DNA from: a virus
Taxonomy: Duplodnaviria; Heunggongvirae; Uroviricota; Caudoviricetes
Virus record (IMG/VR): IMGVR_UViG_3300010373_001364
Location: 1-48,115 of that record
DNA: 48,115 nt
Direction: 5' to 3' (one strand)
This document shows positions 8,519 to 33,135 of this stretch, in pieces. A program made the translations under genes and the position numbers. The notes below the pieces were generated by a model, which was not told where the DNA came from, did no database searches, and was given only the letters and a program-made list of their open reading frames with translations. Within the stretch, counting starts at the first letter, position 1. Each line of letters starts with the position of its first letter.

Positions 8519-9496
8519 ATGCCGAAACATAACCAAGACGAATGTCTGCCACCTCAAGAAAATCCTAACATCGGTCAGGATGCTACATCTGACCAGTGTT
8601 CCGGTGTTCTACCGCCATCTCTGAAGAACGTCGCGGCAGAAATGCATCCTAAACCAAACCAAAAGGTAGGTTACGGTCACTTCGCCGATTGTGACCCCAT
8701 GCAAACGGGTCAGATCACCGAGAACATGATGAAGGAGCCGGTGCGGACACACGATGGCACCGTTATCTATCGCTACTCCAAGGCAATTCGCGGCGCGGAT
8801 GAAGCCGTCAAAGAGATGTTTAATAACTTGGTCTGCATTGATGAAATGGGCGATGTGGTTCCGGTGCCTATCATTTGGGGCACTCAGGAAAGAGCCGTAG
8901 CTCACGTTTTGCAGAACAACATTCGTCAAGACAGCAGCCTTGTGGTCGTCCGGTTGAAACTGCCCATGTTGTCAATCTACAACAGCGGCATCAGCTTCAA
9001 CCAAGACAGGTACATTTACCACCAGGCTATTGATTACTTCCGAAATATCCGCCCAGACAAAAAACCTGGCTTCACCACAATGGAAAATCGCCATGAACGT
9101 GACACGGTTTTTGGTGTTGCCAGGGGCATACCTATCGACATCAATTACCAGTTGACGGCGTGGACACTTTACGTCGAGGATATGAATCAAATCGTGGAGC
9201 AGGTACTTCTGAAATTCTCCCCTGTTGCATATATACAGGTGCAAGGTGTCCATAATTGGGAAGTCATAGCAAAGCTAGACTCCATTGGCAACAACCTTGA
9301 GACAGAGCCAGGCGACCAACAGTTGAGGTTGGTGAAGTTTCAGTTCGGTATTACCGTTGAGTCCTTCATCCCACAGCCGATTGTTAGGAAGAAGGCTGTG
9401 CTAGACCAGAGGATTGATATCGTCAATGGTCTGAGCGAGGAAGAGATCACGGAAGTGCTGGGCAGATTGGAAAAAACGGTCAGTGACAAAAGTTGA
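8519..9496 (+). CDS. Tail terminator / sheath stabilizer, T4 gp15-like
   Basis: VPIIWG..E, LPMLS, P.DINYQL..WT...EDMNQIVEQVLLKFSP; lies upstream of sheath and tube. Confidence 0.8.
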   Translation: MPKHNQDECLPPQENPNIGQDATSDQCSGVLPPSLKNVAAEMHPKPNQKVGYGHFADCDPMQTGQITENMMKEPVRTHDGTVIYRYSKAIRGADEAVKEMFNNLVCIDEMGDVVPVPIIWGTQERAVAHVLQNNIRQDSSLVVVRLKLPMLSIYNSGISFNQDRYIYHQAIDYFRNIRPDKKPGFTTMENRHERDTVFGVARGIPIDINYQLTAWTLYVEDMNQIVEQVLLKFSPVAYIQVQGVHNWEVIAKLDSIGNNLETEPGDQQLRLVKFQFGITVESFIPQPIVRKKAVLDQRIDIVNGLSEEEITEVLGRLEKTVSDKS

Positions 9497-12136: not shown

Positions 12137-12790
12137 ATGGCAACTAACACTAGCCTTTTTGGTGCGCAACCCACCATTCAAGCGGGGCAAAAAAGGAACA
12201 TGGGTCTGGGTTCTTTGGGACTTGCGACCACCTCTATCAAGAGAAAGTTCCGTTGGACGTTGGTAATTTACCCTTACTGCAATGGTATCGGTCCAGTGGG
12301 TCCGAACTTCTGCAAGGTGGCTTCACGTCCCAACTATGACATTGAGGAGACGGAACTAAACTTCCTTAATGCAAAGACATGGATCGCCGGTAAGTTGACC
12401 TGGCAGTCCATCACGGCGACATTCATTGACGCCGGTGCTGTTGAAATTCAGAACCTGTATATGTGGATTGGAACGAACGCCCGCTTGGATAACAACCAGG
12501 CTTTCTTCCAGGGCACCACATTTCAGGATTACGCAGCCCAGGCAGAGTTGACCCTCTTCACAGGTTGCGGTATGCCGATGGAGTCTTGGCTGCTTGGAAA
12601 CGTATGGCCACAGGCTGTTAACTTCGGTGAATTGGATTACACCTCTTCCGAAGAGGCAACAATTGAATTGACCTTGCGTTACGATAGCGTGAAGTATTTC
12701 AGCTACTGCCCACAGGTCACTTTCGCGTCTTGCTGCAATCCATGCACAGTCGCTCCTGCTACAGGAAATTCCTTGGCTGCCGTTCAGTGA
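12137..12790 (+). CDS. Tail tube protein (gp19-like)
   Basis: KRKFRW, RP, GK.TW, W.L...WP..VNFGELDY and IELTLRYD; follows the sheath with an aaggag RBS. Confidence 0.9.
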   Translation: MATNTSLFGAQPTIQAGQKRNMGLGSLGLATTSIKRKFRWTLVIYPYCNGIGPVGPNFCKVASRPNYDIEETELNFLNAKTWIAGKLTWQSITATFIDAGAVEIQNLYMWIGTNARLDNNQAFFQGTTFQDYAAQAELTLFTGCGMPMESWLLGNVWPQAVNFGELDYTSSEEATIELTLRYDSVKYFSYCPQVTFASCCNPCTVAPATGNSLAAVQ

Positions 12791-12815
12791 TAGTCAAGAA
12801 ATTGAATACTGTAAT

Positions 12816-12849
12816 AAATACGGTAGGTGCCAAACACCTACCGTATTTT
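12816..12849 (+). terminator. Terminator hairpin overlapping a TAAATA late-promoter motif (12815-12820)
   Basis: aaatacggtaggtg-ccaaa-cacctaccgtattt 14 bp stem after the tube gene. Confidence 0.75.
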
Positions 12850-12866
12850 CATTTCTAGGGGAAACA

Positions 12867-13517
12867 ATGGGCGTAAACATGGGAATGCACCCCCTTCTTG
12901 TCAAGGGTGGCGATAAGAGAAAGTTCCGCTGGATGTTTAGTATTCAGCCGTATGTTGGGGATCAGGTTTCCATGTTGCCACCTCTTAAGAGCGCACGCCC
13001 CAACGTCTCCTTCAAGGAATACCAAGCCGAACACATTCACGAAACGATTTACTTCCCAGGAAAAGTGGAATGGCAGACGGTAGACTTGTCTTTGTACGAC
13101 ATCAAATGCAAAGAAAACCCCATCTATGAATGGATGAAGCTGATCTACAACCCGGACCCAGATGCACCTTCCGGGTTTGGGGCGACTGGAGGTTTTTATG
13201 GTCCGTCTCTATCTCAACAATCAGGCGGAACACAGTACAAGACCACGGCGCAGGTGACTATGTACAATGGCTGTGGCGATACTCTGGAGACGTGGATCTA
13301 CATGAACGCATACCCCGCTAAGATTGATTGGGGTGATTTGGATATGTCGTCCAACGACCTGACCACAGCAGATATCACTTTGCGTTTCGACAGGGCTTAC
13401 ATACTTCAGAGTACGCCATTCCAACAGCAGGGTGGAGGTGGCGGTGCATTTGGTGCTGCGCCGTCAATTCCCAAAAACTTGCTGTTAAACAACATAGGTG
13501 GAACGGGAGGGTTTTAA
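12867..13517 (+). CDS. Second tail tube-like protein (gp19/gp54-like initiator)
   Basis: Paralog of 12137..12790: KRKFRW, RPN, GKVEW, YP..IDWGDLD, ITLRFD. Confidence 0.85.
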   Translation: MGVNMGMHPLLVKGGDKRKFRWMFSIQPYVGDQVSMLPPLKSARPNVSFKEYQAEHIHETIYFPGKVEWQTVDLSLYDIKCKENPIYEWMKLIYNPDPDAPSGFGATGGFYGPSLSQQSGGTQYKTTAQVTMYNGCGDTLETWIYMNAYPAKIDWGDLDMSSNDLTTADITLRFDRAYILQSTPFQQQGGGGGAFGAAPSIPKNLLLNNIGGTGGF

Positions 13518-13793: not shown

Positions 13794-14255
13794 TCAATCG
13801 TCATGATCGTAGTTGTTGCCACCACGACGGACAGCTTCAGCTATAAGGCTGAAGATGCGATCCTGGTTTATCTTGCTGAGGAAGTCGTAGTAGCGTTCTT
13901 TGAGTTGTTTGTAGTTCTTGGCAGTGCGGTACAGTTGACGGAAGTGGTTTAGTGTGCAGGTAGTGAAATAGTTAAATGCTTTACTTTTGTTGCCAGATTC
14001 GGTAACGTAGTTAGGATCAAAGCAATTCAGCTTCTCAAAGCAAATCATGACGCCTTCTTGCATCATGTCATCGCGGTCGATCAATTGAAACTTGAATGCG
14101 CGGATTATGTTGTCGGCAAGGATATAAAAAGCCTCGGCAAGTTGGTGTTCTGCTTTGCCGAAATCGACTGGCTTTTTCTTGCGGACCCGGTGATACTTCT
14201 TGAAATTGGCAATCAACTCCTCGAAGACTTTGTTGTTGAGATACTCAATAGACAT
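13794..14255 (-). CDS. gp55: Late transcription sigma factor, T4 gp55-like
   Basis: YLNNK, F.ILADNI, DDMMQEG..IC...L.CFDP, AFNYFTT...N.F; start taken at MSIEY (alternative 14309). Confidence 0.88.
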   Translation of the reverse strand: MSIEYLNNKVFEELIANFKKYHRVRKKKPVDFGKAEHQLAEAFYILADNIIRAFKFQLIDRDDMMQEGVMICFEKLNCFDPNYVTESGNKSKAFNYFTTCTLNHFRQLYRTAKNYKQLKERYYDFLSKINQDRIFSLIAEAVRRGGNNYDHDD

Positions 14256-14423
14256 AGAGGTTCCATGTTGCATGGTGACTCGACTGTCTTTCGACGCCCT
14301 TTGAGACACATGCTCAGCGGCGTACTTTCATTCATGCAACACAGGATGGCTCTTGCTTTCGCACCGTGTATATTTCGGTATCTATATGTGTAGTACCCCA
14401 ACTTGAGAAAATGTGAGGGAAAA

Positions 14424-18430: not shown

Positions 18431-19732
18431 ATGACCGACGACATCTTCCAGCAGCGTCCGGCTATCAACCCACATGAGTTCGACGGGGGTGGCACTGACG
18501 ACGAGGGCAGTGTTGATGCAATGAAGGCTCACCTGCAAGCTGGTATGCAAGCAGCGACGCCAACTCCCTCTACACCACCGCCACCTGTGCAAATGACCGG
18601 AAAGATTCCACCGCAGGTCCAGGCAGCAATGAATCAGCCACAGTTTGCCAATCATCCATTAAACCAGCCACAGACTTTCCAGCAGCAGCAACCACAGCAG
18701 CAGCAACCACAGCAGCAGCAACCACAGCAGCAGCCAATGCAATTTAGACAGGACGATGTTCAGTTGCCACAAGCCATGTCAGACGCCCAGGCAATGTATC
18801 AAAACGCCCGTAAGTTGATGGCTCAACAACAGGATCAGCAGCAGCAACCACAGCAGTTTAACCCTGCCTCCTTCAATCCTCAACAAATAGTGCAGCAGAA
18901 CAAGTACAGCGAGTTCAAAGACCCGCGTTTTGAAGAGGTCATGGACAGGTTGACTCGAAGGGCTGGAAACTTCAGCGAGATCGAGCTTCCATCCAAGGGC
19001 AAGTTCTATCTACGGGGCGAAGGTCCGTCCAATGGCATATTGCACATCCGCCCAATGACAGGTAATGAGGAGCAGATTCTCACCACGCCGCGTTATGTCA
19101 AGAAAAACCAGTCTTTGAACATGATTTTCAAGGAGTGCATTGGCGAACAGATCAACCCAGACCTGTTGTTGTCTGAGGACCGCACCTATCTGTTGATCTT
19201 CCTGCGTGGTATCAGTTACTCACCGCTTTATGATGTGGAAATCAAGTGCCCAGAGTGTACCAAGACCTTCCAGAATCAGATTCACCTGGGCGGCTTGGAC
19301 GTAAATTACTGTCCAGATGACTTCGGACCAAGTGATCTTGTGGACACCTTGCCGAACTCTGGCTTAAAGGTCCAGTATCGGCTCTCTACGGGTCGTGATG
19401 AAACCGTAATTCAAGAACACAGGGAAGACAGAATCAACAAGTGGGGTGCGGATGTTACTGATGACACCACCTTGTTCCGTTCTGCGTTGTTGATTGAAGA
19501 AATTGAGGGCATCACCAACAAGCTTATGATCCAACAGATCGTTAGCCGATTGCCAATTGGCGACATGGCTTACCTTCGTGAGCTTCTGAATGAACCGCCG
19601 TTTGGTGTCGATACGAAGATTGGTATCATTTGCCCCCATTGTTCCCATGAGTTCAAGGTTGATATGCCTATGGAACTCAGTTTTTTCTTCCCCAAGCCGA
19701 ACTTACAGAAGAAGAAAAAGCAGCAGGCGTAA
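18431..19732 (+). CDS. Baseplate hub / tail assembly chaperone, T4 gp26-like, with Gln/Pro-rich N-terminus
   Basis: IELPSKG..Y, IRPMT..EE.IL, DR.YLLI.LR.ISY, CPEC and CPHC, terminal FFFP. Confidence 0.85.
   Translation: MTDDIFQQRPAINPHEFDGGGTDDEGSVDAMKAHLQAGMQAATPTPSTPPPPVQMTGKIPPQVQAAMNQPQFANHPLNQPQTFQQQQPQQQQPQQQQPQQQPMQFRQDDVQLPQAMSDAQAMYQNARKLMAQQQDQQQQPQQFNPASFNPQQIVQQNKYSEFKDPRFEEVMDRLTRRAGNFSEIELPSKGKFYLRGEGPSNGILHIRPMTGNEEQILTTPRYVKKNQSLNMIFKECIGEQINPDLLLSEDRTYLLIFLRGISYSPLYDVEIKCPECTKTFQNQIHLGGLDVNYCPDDFGPSDLVDTLPNSGLKVQYRLSTGRDETVIQEHREDRINKWGADVTDDTTLFRSALLIEEIEGITNKLMIQQIVSRLPIGDMAYLRELLNEPPFGVDTKIGIICPHCSHEFKVDMPMELSFFFPKPNLQKKKKQQA
18680..18736 (+). repeat. Coding 15-nt tandem repeat (QQQQP), about 3.8 copies
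   Basis: cagcagcagcaacca x3 followed by cagcagcagcca. Confidence 0.9.
19681..19687 (+). promoter_or_regulatory. Putative -1 programmed ribosomal frameshift site T TTT TTC
   Basis: X XXY YYZ heptamer in register with the gp26-like frame; the -1 frame stays open to 19950. Confidence 0.75.
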
Positions 19733-19950
19733 TACCAGAAGAGAAGGCTGCGTTTGTTGCTGGAGAGAATCTCAGAGAGGAGATATTTTTCTTCATGTAT
19801 CACATGAATATCCCGAAGAGGGATGTCATGGAGTTGGAACCGGAGGAGAGGAAGTGGATGATCCACCGTTTCGTGGAACAGAAACGCAAAGAGAACGAGG
19901 AAATCGAAAGAGCTAAGGCGAAAGCCAAGTCGCAATCCAAACACAAGTAA
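19681..19950 (+). CDS. Frameshift extension of gp26-like protein (gp51-like / chaperone T domain)
   Basis: -1 frame reads FFLPQAELTEEEKAAG...ENLREEIFFFMYHMNIPKRDVMELEPEERKWMIHRFVEQKRKE; first ATG only at 19795, inside the conserved part. Confidence 0.75.
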   Translation, partial: FFLPQAELTEEEKAAGVIPEEKAAFVAGENLREEIFFFMYHMNIPKRDVMELEPEERKWMIHRFVEQKRKENEEIERAKAKAKSQSKHK

Positions 19951-19959
19951 GGAGAAGAA

Positions 19960-20190
19960 ATGTCAAAGGAAAAGAAGAAGTTGAAAGGCGTGGTGGTGTT
20001 TTACATCGACGTGGGGCAGTTACCACCCAAGAAGGCTCAAGAGTTTGTTGATAAACTCCGAGAGCAGAACAAGGAGTTCCTTGATTCTCTGCCAGAAGAT
20101 GTTGGTGAATTGTGGTTGCCTGTGCGCAATGGCAACACCAGGGTAGAGTCACTATCTTTATGTGGTTGGGGATGTCCAGAAAGCAACTAA
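19960..20190 (+). CDS. Miniature portal-protein fragment (T4 gp20 clip-region homolog)
   Basis: VFYIDVGQLPPKKAQEFV...ELWLPVRNGNTRVESL matches T4-type portal FYIDVGNLP..KAE.Y...WLPRR.G..TE..TL; aaggag RBS. Confidence 0.7.
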   Translation: MSKEKKKLKGVVVFYIDVGQLPPKKAQEFVDKLREQNKEFLDSLPEDVGELWLPVRNGNTRVESLSLCGWGCPESN

Positions 20191-20191
20191 C

Positions 20192-20350
20192 ATGACAAAC
20201 GAAAAAGACCTGGAAGACGTATTCTTCCTGCAATACCACCTTGGCTGGAGTCTTCAATCTATCAAGGCTATGAAGCCTTGGGAGAGAAGGTGGATAATCG
20301 ACAGATTCATCGAGGAAAAGAAAAGGCAAAGAGGTAAAGATGGGGAGTAA
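20192..20350 (+). CDS. Stand-alone gp51-like small protein (paralog of the frameshift extension)
   Basis: EDVFFLQYHLGWS...IKAMKPWERRWIIDRFIEEKK aligns with EEIFFFMYH...ERKWMIHRFVEQKR. Confidence 0.75.
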   Translation: MTNEKDLEDVFFLQYHLGWSLQSIKAMKPWERRWIIDRFIEEKKRQRGKDGE

Positions 20351-20720
20351 TGTTGTTCCAGCAAGGTCGCGGTGGCGGCTTGAGTCTAAGACGTTTCCAG
20401 AGCTTAGTGGATATGTCGTAACTGTTCAAGAAGATTTCTTCTCCAAGACCATTGGTCTTGTGGCACTGGACGCTATTGTCAACGGAAAGCCGGTGGTACA
20501 TGAGTGGATCGTTAAAACGCTCAATAATCCAGGCGAAGAGGTTTTTAACCTCTACCACCATGACGGCAACGGCAATCTCCTTTACAGGAAGATACTGAAG
20601 GGGCTGAAGTTAATTGGTCACAAGTGTAACCACAACTACGAGTGCGAAGGTGATGATTTGCAAGATCATGAACTGTTTTTCACCTTCGAGGAACTCCAGA
20701 CCATCGACAACATTAACTGA
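20340..20720 (+). CDS. Truncated tail tube-like protein
   Basis: RW...IGLVALD...PVVHEWI...DGNGNLL...DDLQDHELFFTFE aligns with tube 12867 RW...VDLSLYD...PIYEWM...NGCGDTL...NDLTTADITLRFD. Confidence 0.6.
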   Translation: MGSNVVPARSRWRLESKTFPELSGYVVTVQEDFFSKTIGLVALDAIVNGKPVVHEWIVKTLNNPGEEVFNLYHHDGNGNLLYRKILKGLKLIGHKCNHNYECEGDDLQDHELFFTFEELQTIDNIN

Positions 20721-20729
20721 AAGGCAAGG

Positions 20730-21239
20730 ATGGGTGATTTCCACGAAGAAGGCAAGGTCTATAAGTATTGTAAGTTACTCCGCAAGACAGACGAGGCGGT
20801 CAAGAGCCTATTCAGCGATCTTGTAGTGGTAAATGAAGAAGGTGATGCACATAAGGTTCCCTGCATATGGGCTGATTATGAGAAGACGAGAGCGTACCTT
20901 GAACAAGGGTCAAATGAATTGAATCTGGATGGCACTCTCAAAATCACCGATAAAATCAAAGCCAGGTTGCCACTAATAAGTGTTTACAGCACTGATATTA
21001 CCATGCCGGCTTCTTTGCCGGTGGTTGGCTACACTGTAAACATCAAAACCCTGTTCCAAGAGGACATGAACCAAATTCTTGAACAGATAATCTTGAAGTT
21101 TGACAACAAGAAGAACTGTAAATTGGCTGGTGTTGCCCGCAATTACAGCGATGGCGAAGTATCTCAACTCAGGGTGCTACAGTCCACATTCGGCATTACC
21201 GTGGAAGGAATTGGCGTGCCGGTGGAAACCCATGAATAA
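20730..21239 (+). CDS. Shortened paralog of the gp15-like tail terminator
   Basis: DEAVK.LF..LV, VP.IW, LP.IS.Y, EDMNQI.EQ..LKF and FGITVE shared with 8519..9496. Confidence 0.85.
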   Translation: MGDFHEEGKVYKYCKLLRKTDEAVKSLFSDLVVVNEEGDAHKVPCIWADYEKTRAYLEQGSNELNLDGTLKITDKIKARLPLISVYSTDITMPASLPVVGYTVNIKTLFQEDMNQILEQIILKFDNKKNCKLAGVARNYSDGEVSQLRVLQSTFGITVEGIGVPVETHE

Positions 21240-21253: not shown

Positions 21254-21997
21254 ATGGGCAACTTAGTACAGAGATACCAGAATCCAGCGGTCAATGACAC
21301 GGTTCGATTGAGGCTTCTCGTCTTCAACTCCAACCAACAACAGAACTTACTTGCCATTAACACGGTAAGTATTTATTACTTTGATCCCACTTCAGTAACA
21401 GAAGATAATCCTCATGGTGCGCTTTTGGTGCAGACGGTGCCGGGCAGCAGTGTTGTGAACGATGCCCCCGGCTCCTACTATTTGGACCTACCTCTTCCGG
21501 GTCCACAATATGTCATTGGCAAGTACAAGGATGTATGGAACGTCGTCTATGAGCCTAATGCACAGGCTACCGACGTAACAAAGCGTTTCGAGATTTATCC
21601 GTCTCTCTGGTACACATCGGAAATACCGATTGTTTACGACTTCAACTTTTGTTATCAGCCATCGAGGATCGTCCAGGGTTCCCAGAAATGGCTCGTCATT
21701 GAGATCATTCCAAAGGTGCCAACTGCCTCTGCCCTGGAGTCTTACTACTACAACCTAGCCATCTCTTCCACATTGTATGTCACCATCGCCAAGAAATGCG
21801 ATCCGTGCTTGCCCCAAGAGCAAGACCTAAGAGTTGTCGTAGATCAAGCGCCGGTAGAACAAAGAGAGAAAGTTTTTGGCTATTATTGGCTTGACACTAC
21901 CGAGATGGATGGGGGTCTATACGACATTTGGTTCACGCTCTATTTCGGGGGCAACACTTACGTTTCCGAAAGGCAACAGCTTCTTCTTTGGTGTTAA
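21254..21997 (+). CDS. Probable virion structural protein (beta-rich, two repeated GxY..W domains)
   Basis: GSYY...GKYKDVW and GYYW...GLYDIWF duplicated pattern; late motif upstream. Confidence 0.55.
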   Translation: MGNLVQRYQNPAVNDTVRLRLLVFNSNQQQNLLAINTVSIYYFDPTSVTEDNPHGALLVQTVPGSSVVNDAPGSYYLDLPLPGPQYVIGKYKDVWNVVYEPNAQATDVTKRFEIYPSLWYTSEIPIVYDFNFCYQPSRIVQGSQKWLVIEIIPKVPTASALESYYYNLAISSTLYVTIAKKCDPCLPQEQDLRVVVDQAPVEQREKVFGYYWLDTTEMDGGLYDIWFTLYFGGNTYVSERQQLLLWC

Positions 21998-32730: not shown

Positions 32731-33135
32731 TTAGCCCTCAGCACCAACGCCACCAGAGACGCCAGTCTGACCGCCAGCAACGGCAGCGCCGTCAGGGCTG
32801 TAGACCAAGAACCAGTTGAAAGTTTGGGTGGAAGTGTTCGGACCAGTGACAGTGAAGCCAGTGGTGGAAACCTGAGAAACAGCCAAACCAACAGCACCAG
32901 CACCAGAAGTAGTGCCAACTGCGTTTACGTCAGCATAGTAGCCAACGGCGGAAGCCAGTGGCTGAGTGAACGGTACGTTCACCTGGGACGGGGTGCCGGA
33001 AACCAAAGATGCCTGACCAGCATCAACAAGGCGAGGACCGATCAAATGATCTACACCAAGGTGCATGTGCTGACTGCCCTTGTTAACGCGATCCGCAGAT
33101 CCTTGACCAATTCCAGTAACAGAACTTGCTGCCAT
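32731..33135 (-). CDS. Probable virion decoration or fibre protein (beta-sandwich, H-lectin-like)
   Basis: Ala/Gly/Ser/Thr/Val-rich; VSTTGFTV...FNW; own TAGATA (33169-33174), aggag RBS and terminator. Confidence 0.6.
   Translation of the reverse strand: MAASSVTGIGQGSADRVNKGSQHMHLGVDHLIGPRLVDAGQASLVSGTPSQVNVPFTQPLASAVGYYADVNAVGTTSGAGAVGLAVSQVSTTGFTVTGPNTSTQTFNWFLVYSPDGAAVAGGQTGVSGGVGAEG

Follow-up and report, generated by a model that had tools for sequence, protein, structure and literature searches.

Blockers of phage tail assembly are reportedly found in the Tai systems. In the SaPI satellites, the capsid paralogue Ccm blocks the helper phage (PMC5052747). Here, we present a stretch of 48,115 nucleotides (the window) that forms the first 48 kb of the 176-kb virus record IMGVR_UViG_3300010373_001364 (Caudoviricetes; estimated completeness 35%). 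Four short open reading frames (ORFs), A to D, lie there directly behind a tail assembly chaperone gene and are related to the portal clip, the T extension of the chaperone, the tail tube and the tail terminator, respectively (Table 1). It is nearly, although not quite, an even chance that a clade of ~500-kb phages keeps a genome-wide arsenal of interface-deleted copies of its own virion genes, which serve either as dominant-negative weapons in competition with relatives or to shield the phages from fold-sensing host immunity, and that four of these copies are neighbours in the window. With the same reserve, this arsenal would consist of clips, T domains, hairpin-less tubes, sheath-less terminators, and capsid and neck fragments, some of them with membrane- or export-like leaders. 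Somewhat more tentatively, we suggest that ORFs A–D are one-faced dominant-negative spoilers that lower the yield of co-infecting related phages.

The joints concerned have been described in other phages. In T4, both terminase and gp13 are bound by the portal clip, and packaging is inhibited by a clip peptide of 24 residues (PMC4493910). T4 gp15 is bound to the neck via loops 28–74 and 176–184 and to the sheath via residues 209–272, and gp3, the natural top cap, retains a long loop that it uses to grip the tube (PMC12929629). In tube proteins the beta2-beta3 loop is the main ring-to-ring contact; its removal abolishes tube growth in T5 and SPP1, and in YSD1 bare hexamer rings are formed (PMC8718954). 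In lambda, the tube subunit is the partner of the T domain and the tape measure that of G, and T4 is named as an exception without a G-T frameshift in a review (PMC5009743).

A preliminary description of the window, made from the sequence alone, had reported four tightly packed, intact ORFs of 76, 52, 126 and 169 aa, and this is borne out. The four frames are intact and co-oriented, their GC content at third codon positions (GC3) is 0.52–0.56 against 0.54–0.59 in the adjacent structural genes, and a 1708-nt contig from an independent study covers 19510–21217, i.e., nearly the whole block. An assembly artefact is rejected because this contig spans the block. Purine-rich Shine-Dalgarno-like leaders precede ORFs A, C and D; ORF B starts one base past the stop of ORF A and has no clear leader of this type. 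The length of ORF B is counted from its ATG, and an in-frame GTG at 20162 is also listed. Promoter-like sites occur at chance level (6 seen, 4.7 expected), as do terminators in a corresponding scan. Strain variants inside the cassette, two substitutions and one deletion, are too few for a ratio of nonsynonymous to synonymous substitution rates (dN/dS).

The homology of all four ORFs to assembly proteins, which had been proposed at the same time, also holds, on different evidence for each gene. ORF A matches Portal_T4 (PF07230) with 23.9 bits against a cut-off of 22.9. The match is limited to model positions 208–233 of 433, and the stem, wing and crown domains are not present. Aligned to a portal of the clade, 27 of 53 residues are identical, in two pieces that flank a 15-residue gap (E 2e-12), and ORF A amounts to ~55 residues' worth of an 850-residue portal. 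It is the sole portal-family match in the 35%-complete record, from which a full portal is absent. A word-based homologue search with ORF A returned only itself, and the structure Atlas gave no usable match. Among 152 loci collected for this analysis, about 20 stand-alone clip-only genes of several forms are found in relatives; they comprise an older, divergent clip-only family and portal-like forms in three other records. The profile of the older family by itself matches ORF A (E 9e-6) but misses full portals, so that the portal origin of this family rests on ORF A as a bridge. Mosaic ORFs are also seen: one or two clip motifs are joined to the C-terminal motif of the portal in L015 (1297–1902) and L131 (940–1827), and in other mosaics a leader, a clip and a neck piece, i.e., unrelated fragments, are joined.

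ORF B shares 36% identity over 39 aa with the region 19777–19893 and is found by a profile of 22 true -1 extensions, the T domain, with an E-value of 2e-11; it also matches phrog_634 and DUF6760. It sits after the clip ORF with its own ATG and has neither a G domain nor a slippery-site junction. Judged by sequence, ORF B is thus T in the form of a free gene. In 5 of 22 other records, free T genes likewise occur at sites remote from the chaperone. The parent was described as a full-length counterpart at 19681–19950, but this is the -1 frame of the hub/chaperone gene and not a separate gene, while the tubes from 12137 and the terminator at 8519 are indeed full-length counterparts. The heptamer T TTT TTC is in register in all 36 loci with the gene end, the window included (37 loci were examined, several of them near-identical). 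After the heptamer the -1 frame encodes a gp51-like segment, and in a divergent contig 11 of 11 differences fall at third positions of this frame. The gp26-like gene and its extension are thus laid out as a G/GT tail assembly chaperone with a predicted frameshift, and the conserved slippery site suggests that the gp26/gp51-like pair forms a G/GT chaperone in this clade. A prediction of a complex of ORF B with ORF C, run without controls, scored 0.00.

ORF C has no BLAST similarity to the two tube genes of the window and no Pfam or PHROG match. In the T4 neck-tail structure, a chain of 175 residues aligns to its model (pLDDT 86.5) with Z 12.1 and rmsd 3.8 Å over 123 residues, and tube proteins essentially tie with this match (Z 11.8). 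Foldseek gives an E-value of 1e-4, and Atlas TM-scores of 0.73–0.77 to the tube fold, a core of a beta-sandwich and a helix. The model has a short turn between strands E26-32 and E37-44 where the long beta2-beta3 loop is expected, which appears as a gap against full tubes, and more distant, bridging relatives retain tube motifs on either side of the missing hairpin. From the model and these bridging relatives, ORF C is probably a tube protein. Profile-profile alignments of close homologues to tubes are weak (hhalign probability 13% at best). There are 18 homologues at 54–80% identity; single-protein locus scans in viral contigs found nothing for ORF C or ORF D. In three loci, the frame continues past a hairpin-less tube domain into either the missing hairpin motif or part of a second tube domain (L148 1417–2283, L179 2138–3160, L023 1468–1965).

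ORF D is 29% identical to the gp15-like terminator of the window (E 2e-23, with internal gaps of 41 and 12 aa), matches PF16724 with 35.5 bits against a cut-off of 25, and its model matches T4 gp15 (Foldseek E 1e-9). It ends ~35 aa before the end of the window gp15, and the C-terminal sheath-binding domain is missing. The short gp15 family aligns to residues 18–196 of the 272 in T4 gp15, skipping 91–115 and 145–160; in this alignment ORF D retains the neck-facing loops. Eight short database proteins are homologous at 42–67% identity, and across D homologues of 47–68% identity the termini are conserved. The same 41-aa gap is found in the short gp15 of LR756511.1, a 595-kb uncultured phage that is the nearest record in annotated collections. 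Short gp15 genes are present in 3 of 47 records, including G005 and G039, and a scan of prokaryote genomes with the ORF D alignment found nothing. When 41 gp15 rows are placed in a quick tree, 11 short and 30 full ones form separate groups (SH-aLRT 98), but on long branches, so long-branch attraction is possible.

The structural comparisons that the preliminary description had called for therefore gave the tube fold for ORF C and the T4 gp15 fold for ORF D. Its view that the fold cores are kept and internal loops are lost applies to A, C and D but not to B, which is a free copy of a frameshift extension and not loop-deleted. Separate origins, as opposed to one segmental duplication, are supported; each gene belongs to its own family in this huge-phage clade.

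Selection had been preferred over decay. This stands for the clip and tube families, the only ones with dN/dS values: 0.13 for ORF C against contig L003 (dS 2.9), 0.07–0.15 in three other hairpin-less tube pairs and 0.18–0.30 in three clip pairs, with none computed for B and D. The 247-aa gene that follows the cassette also gives 0.13 (against L004). In all, 15 pairs were run, of which three were core controls and 12 came from short families; among these 12, dS had reached saturation in 5. The comparison of coding sequences thus supports that the C and clip families are under selection and not decaying.

As a block, the cassette is not conserved. It is missing at this site in 34 of 34 relatives with both flanking genes. 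The spacing between T and the 247-aa gene is 1304 nt here. In these relatives it ranges over 12–959 nt and does not exceed 447 nt in 30; the figure includes T itself wherever the -1 translation met an early stop. Profile searches found no homologues of A, C or D in this gap of the relatives; in one lineage it contains a second T-like ORF with a weak match (E about 0.1). Two short contigs carry close C homologues: L003 has the order chaperone-T-C without A or B, and L004 has C, an HNH-like gene and the 247-aa gene, without D. An HNH-like gene occupies the same site in L012. C and D homologues agree in the length of their longest contig in three cases and would thus lie on the same contigs, which points to a partial linkage, and a B-like segment is fused in frame to the N-terminus of 2 of the 18 C homologues. 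A conserved four-gene operon is rejected because the block is missing from this site in all these relatives and the nearest DNA relatives lack either A and B or D, and the dedicated system that had been proposed is not supported. Comparison with relatives thus showed no block synteny, together with the low dN/dS of the C and clip families. The block in the window is a local cluster of a genome-wide repertoire and not a fixed system.

This repertoire is most visible in LR756511.1, with about ten shrunken copies (five capsid fragments, two clip genes, and a short gp14, gp15 and tube) spread over 125–590 kb. Twin-arginine-like leaders are present on seven of its ORFs, whereas shuffled sequences give 1.1, and three of the seven are structural copies; the record of the window has no such leaders. 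The D, free T and clip-only genes are patchy, like accessory genes. Hairpin-less tubes are only 18–36% identical between genomes whose tubes are 42–58% identical (10 pairs).

Further short copies were observed. In the same record as the window, but beyond it (G000 C1), there are three capsid-derived ORFs, at 120205–121152 (315 aa, matching both capsid ends with the middle insertion gone), 143175–143711 (178 aa) and 125309–125536 (75 aa). Neck-derived (gp13-like) fragments lie at 87006–87416 and 56582–56998 (minus strand), and the ORF at 128086–128553 has a portal fragment at its end. Twin-arginine-like hydrophobic leaders are found on short clip, terminator, tube and portal-tail copies in L014 (1495–1755), L018 (1423–2061), L027 (4453–5196), L050 (9902–10552), L191 (9788–10390) and L192 (9714–10301 and 18924–19253), which from their sequence suggests membrane anchoring or export. 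In G012, the full gene of the large terminase is immediately preceded by an N-terminal copy of 301 aa (L200 6378–7283). A 134-aa ORF in the window (32731–33135, minus strand) and a 74-aa ORF at 89576–89800 of G000 C1 share their N-terminal 60 residues (E 1e-7) and are possibly another short copy of a virion gene.

We suggest, as a tentative preference, that the copies interfere with competing relatives, because their distribution is patchy, they change fast and recur, and self-assembling proteins are favoured among their parents. The deletions fall on the joining elements of the parents of A, C and D, which supports this interpretation. Following the solved biology of T4, lambda and SPP1, each ORF would engage one assembly partner and leave the joint unfinished: (i) ORF A would occupy the terminase or the neck adaptor without a head, (ii) ORF B would bind tube subunits without a tether to the tape measure, (iii) ORF C would form rings that can accept but not donate the stacking hairpin, and (iv) ORF D would keep the neck-facing loops while being unable to cap the sheath. 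The target would be a competitor and not the phage itself, as far as we can infer.

Several observations weigh against such interference. The block is co-oriented directly behind the phage's own chaperone gene, and the scan of the region placed no plus-strand terminator-like site upstream of 21348; its products are therefore likely to be made at the same time as the tail proteins of the phage itself, which they would be expected to poison, and no antidote gene was identified. No copy is nearer to the part of another phage than to its own, and the short gp15 proteins form a separate, long-branched group. The inhibitory T4 peptide may come from a region that overlaps the 15 residues lost from ORF A. 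In one contig, of depth 5.8, ORF D has a one-base deletion in codon 7 (1 of 8 runs compared). For selection, dS is near or at saturation in most pairs, and there was no suitable DNA pair for B or D. The bias to assembly genes (a paralogue of at most 70% length for 5 of 12 virion-assembly genes against 9 of 110 other conserved genes, Fisher p 0.005, among 122 conserved proteins of at least 180 aa with three artefact rows dropped, or p 0.013 with these kept) is a post hoc result based on our own gene classes, checked in part with Pfam, and on profiles of unequal depth. Finally, among 22 chosen records, hairpin-less tubes are present in 11 of 11 of at least 84 kb and in 0 of 11 shorter ones, where at least 7 of the 11 positive records were seeds and the short ones were picked partly for lacking the gene at its usual place; in 20 of 30 loci they also follow the 247-aa gene at a distance of at most 1.5 kb. 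Both the presence in the larger records and this position suit a core assembly role.

The copies could then be helpers of the phage's own morphogenesis, with ORF C as a bottom or initiator ring or a transient nucleator, ORF B tuning the G:GT balance or buffering tube subunits, and A and D as transient caps that time neck-tail joining. We regard this as unlikely but as a serious candidate, strongest for ORF C, because self-poisoning is expected from the late-operon position. Besides the placement in the tail operon and the distribution of the hairpin-less tubes, it is favoured by the older clip-only family, whose genes shortly precede the chaperone gene in 9 of the 31 loci that include the chaperone start, by the B-like segments fused to C homologues, and by the close relatives of C, which are about as conserved as the 247-aa gene. 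However, the C family diverges about twice as much as the tubes and occurs in one to two copies, with fusions and export-like leaders. A gp3-like top cap is disfavoured for ORF C because gp3 keeps its long loop, which ORF C lacks. Likewise, a short gp15 was not found in G042 (459 kb, 91% complete), and capsid fragments of 75–227 aa, far from structural genes, fit poorly with a helper function.

A rather improbable alternative is that the copies are decoys, which bind host fold sensors (Avs/STAND and similar) without firing them. The set of parents (portal, neck adaptor, head-tail connector, terminator, tube, chaperone and capsid) overlaps the published Avs targets, and ORF D retains the globular core that Avs12-15 are modelled to envelop (10.64898/2026.01.04.697583). 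The patchiness and fast divergence also match an arms race with the host. However, the same source models Avs16 on the beta-hairpin of the tube, which ORF C lacks, and Avs17 on the N-terminal chaperone core, which ORF B lacks. The decoy function considered in the preliminary description is hence weakened for B and C, while D keeps its core. A kept core would also be likelier to trigger a sensor than to block it, because the sensors respond to the core folds of monomers, and RecA and helicase are Avs targets too, yet the survey of conserved genes found no short paralogue of RecA or DnaB.

Least probable is that the copies merely arose as duplication and shuffling went on in a huge, recombinogenic genome, with some co-opted later for unrelated jobs and the four gathered by chance at an insertion-tolerant site: the unconserved block, the HNH-like gene at this site in L012, the mosaics of unrelated fragments, the frameshift in ORF D in one contig and the known truncated paralogues of giant phages such as SPN3US gp117 (PMC5694885) would fit, but the frames are intact with low dN/dS (at saturated dS), the termini are conserved across D homologues, deletion boundaries are identical in distant genomes, and assembly genes are over-represented.

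With regard to the setting, near-identical DNA is found in soil and mine-drainage metagenomes from 10 studies, of which one is possibly the source; no RNA datasets are among the listed matches. From 8519 onward the window contains a T4-like tail module identified with Pfam and PHROG, which comprises the terminator, the sheath, two tubes and the gp26-like gene at 18431. The 247-aa gene has no Pfam or PHROG match, is present in 30 of 46 records, is linked to the chaperone gene, and is likely a core tail gene of the clade. In LR756511.1 (L006 11928–13527) the tube genes directly follow the terminator, without the sheath gene that intervenes in the window. A sigma-factor-like gene lies inside the tail cluster (13794–14309, minus strand), with shorter paralogues in L031 (576–950) and L050 (18005–18337). 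The N-terminus of the chaperone (18570–18900) has glutamine/proline-rich repeats, at which short-read contigs break.

Table 1. The cassette, its parent genes and its neighbours; positions refer to the window.
Feature	Position	Strand	Description
ORF A	19960..20190	+	76 aa; portal clip core (strand-helix-strand-strand), ~15 residues of the internal clip loop missing
ORF B	20192..20350	+	52 aa; by sequence, free copy of the post-frameshift T domain of the tail assembly chaperone
ORF C	20340..20720	+	126 aa; probable tail-tube fold without the long beta2-beta3 hairpin and most of the post-helix loop
ORF D	20730..21239	+	169 aa; gp15-like tail terminator core without the 41-aa and 12-aa internal segments, N-terminal extension and C-terminal domain
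gp26-like hub/tail assembly chaperone, G part	18431..19732	+	PF12322 E 6e-15, phrog_150; cassette next on same strand
Slippery heptamer T TTT TTC	19681..19687	+	in register for a predicted -1 frameshift
T extension of chaperone, -1 frame	19681..19950	+	parent family of ORF B
Full-length gp15-like tail terminator	8519..9496	+	PF16724 E 7e-15; parent family of ORF D
Two full-length tail tube genes	12137..13517	+	217 and 216 aa, hairpin kept; parent family of ORF C
Conserved 247-aa gene	21254..21997	+	directly after the chaperone in relatives; hairpin-less tube genes often next

If the interference is true, natural dominant-negative alleles are derived by huge phages from the genes of their own morphogenesis, and most steps of virion assembly are covered by them. 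Assembly interference would then extend from satellites and prophages to competition between phages, and a part of the small unknown genes in huge genomes would be explained. Even on the milder readings, the copies are naturally selected deletion mutants that mark separable surfaces of the portal, tube, terminator and chaperone, and the ORFs lend themselves to cloning and to tests with defined Avs sensors. We found no description of a repertoire of this kind in the open-access literature, subscription journals being outside this coverage.

Among known systems, the copies resemble SaPIbov5 Ccm, which is likewise a structural-protein paralogue, cannot replace its parent and interferes with assembly (PMC5052747), although interference is only proposed here. 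Ccm is a near-full HK97-fold protein, encoded on a satellite, and redirects the capsid size (PMC5052747). In contrast, the copies here are small and interface-deleted, concern the portal, neck and tail steps, and are located in a huge phage with its own full set. As the record encodes its own sheath, tubes and terminator, it does not resemble a satellite in need of a helper, as in the Ccm type. The prophage Tab proteins are also small, phage-borne and block the tail assembly of other phages, but they are constitutively made from a prophage, sense the tape measure and have an anti-Tab partner (PMC10884400); here, neither an antidote nor a separate promoter was found, and the ORFs are homologues of the assembly proteins themselves.

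The likeness to lambda gpG/gpGT lies in the upstream gene, with its conserved in-register -1 slippery site and T extension, to which ORF B is homologous; unlike in lambda, B is a separate gene without a G part. T4 is described as lacking the G-T frameshift (PMC5009743), whereas the gp26/gp51-like pair here appears, from its sequence, to use one. Folds and motifs of T4 gp15, gp3, gp19 and the gp20 clip are common to ORFs D, C and A. However, compared to T4, D is without the sheath-binding domain, C is without the long tube-gripping loop of gp3, and A is a small part of the portal. In the giant phage SPN3US, the cryptic protease gp117 is also a morphogenesis paralogue in truncated form, but it is a single gene and is read as a remnant (PMC5694885), while short copies exist here for at least seven assembly genes, deletion points are shared, and selection is seen in two families. 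The case can thus be seen as a candidate variant of structural-paralogue interference, in which the anatomy is well supported and the function is proposed.
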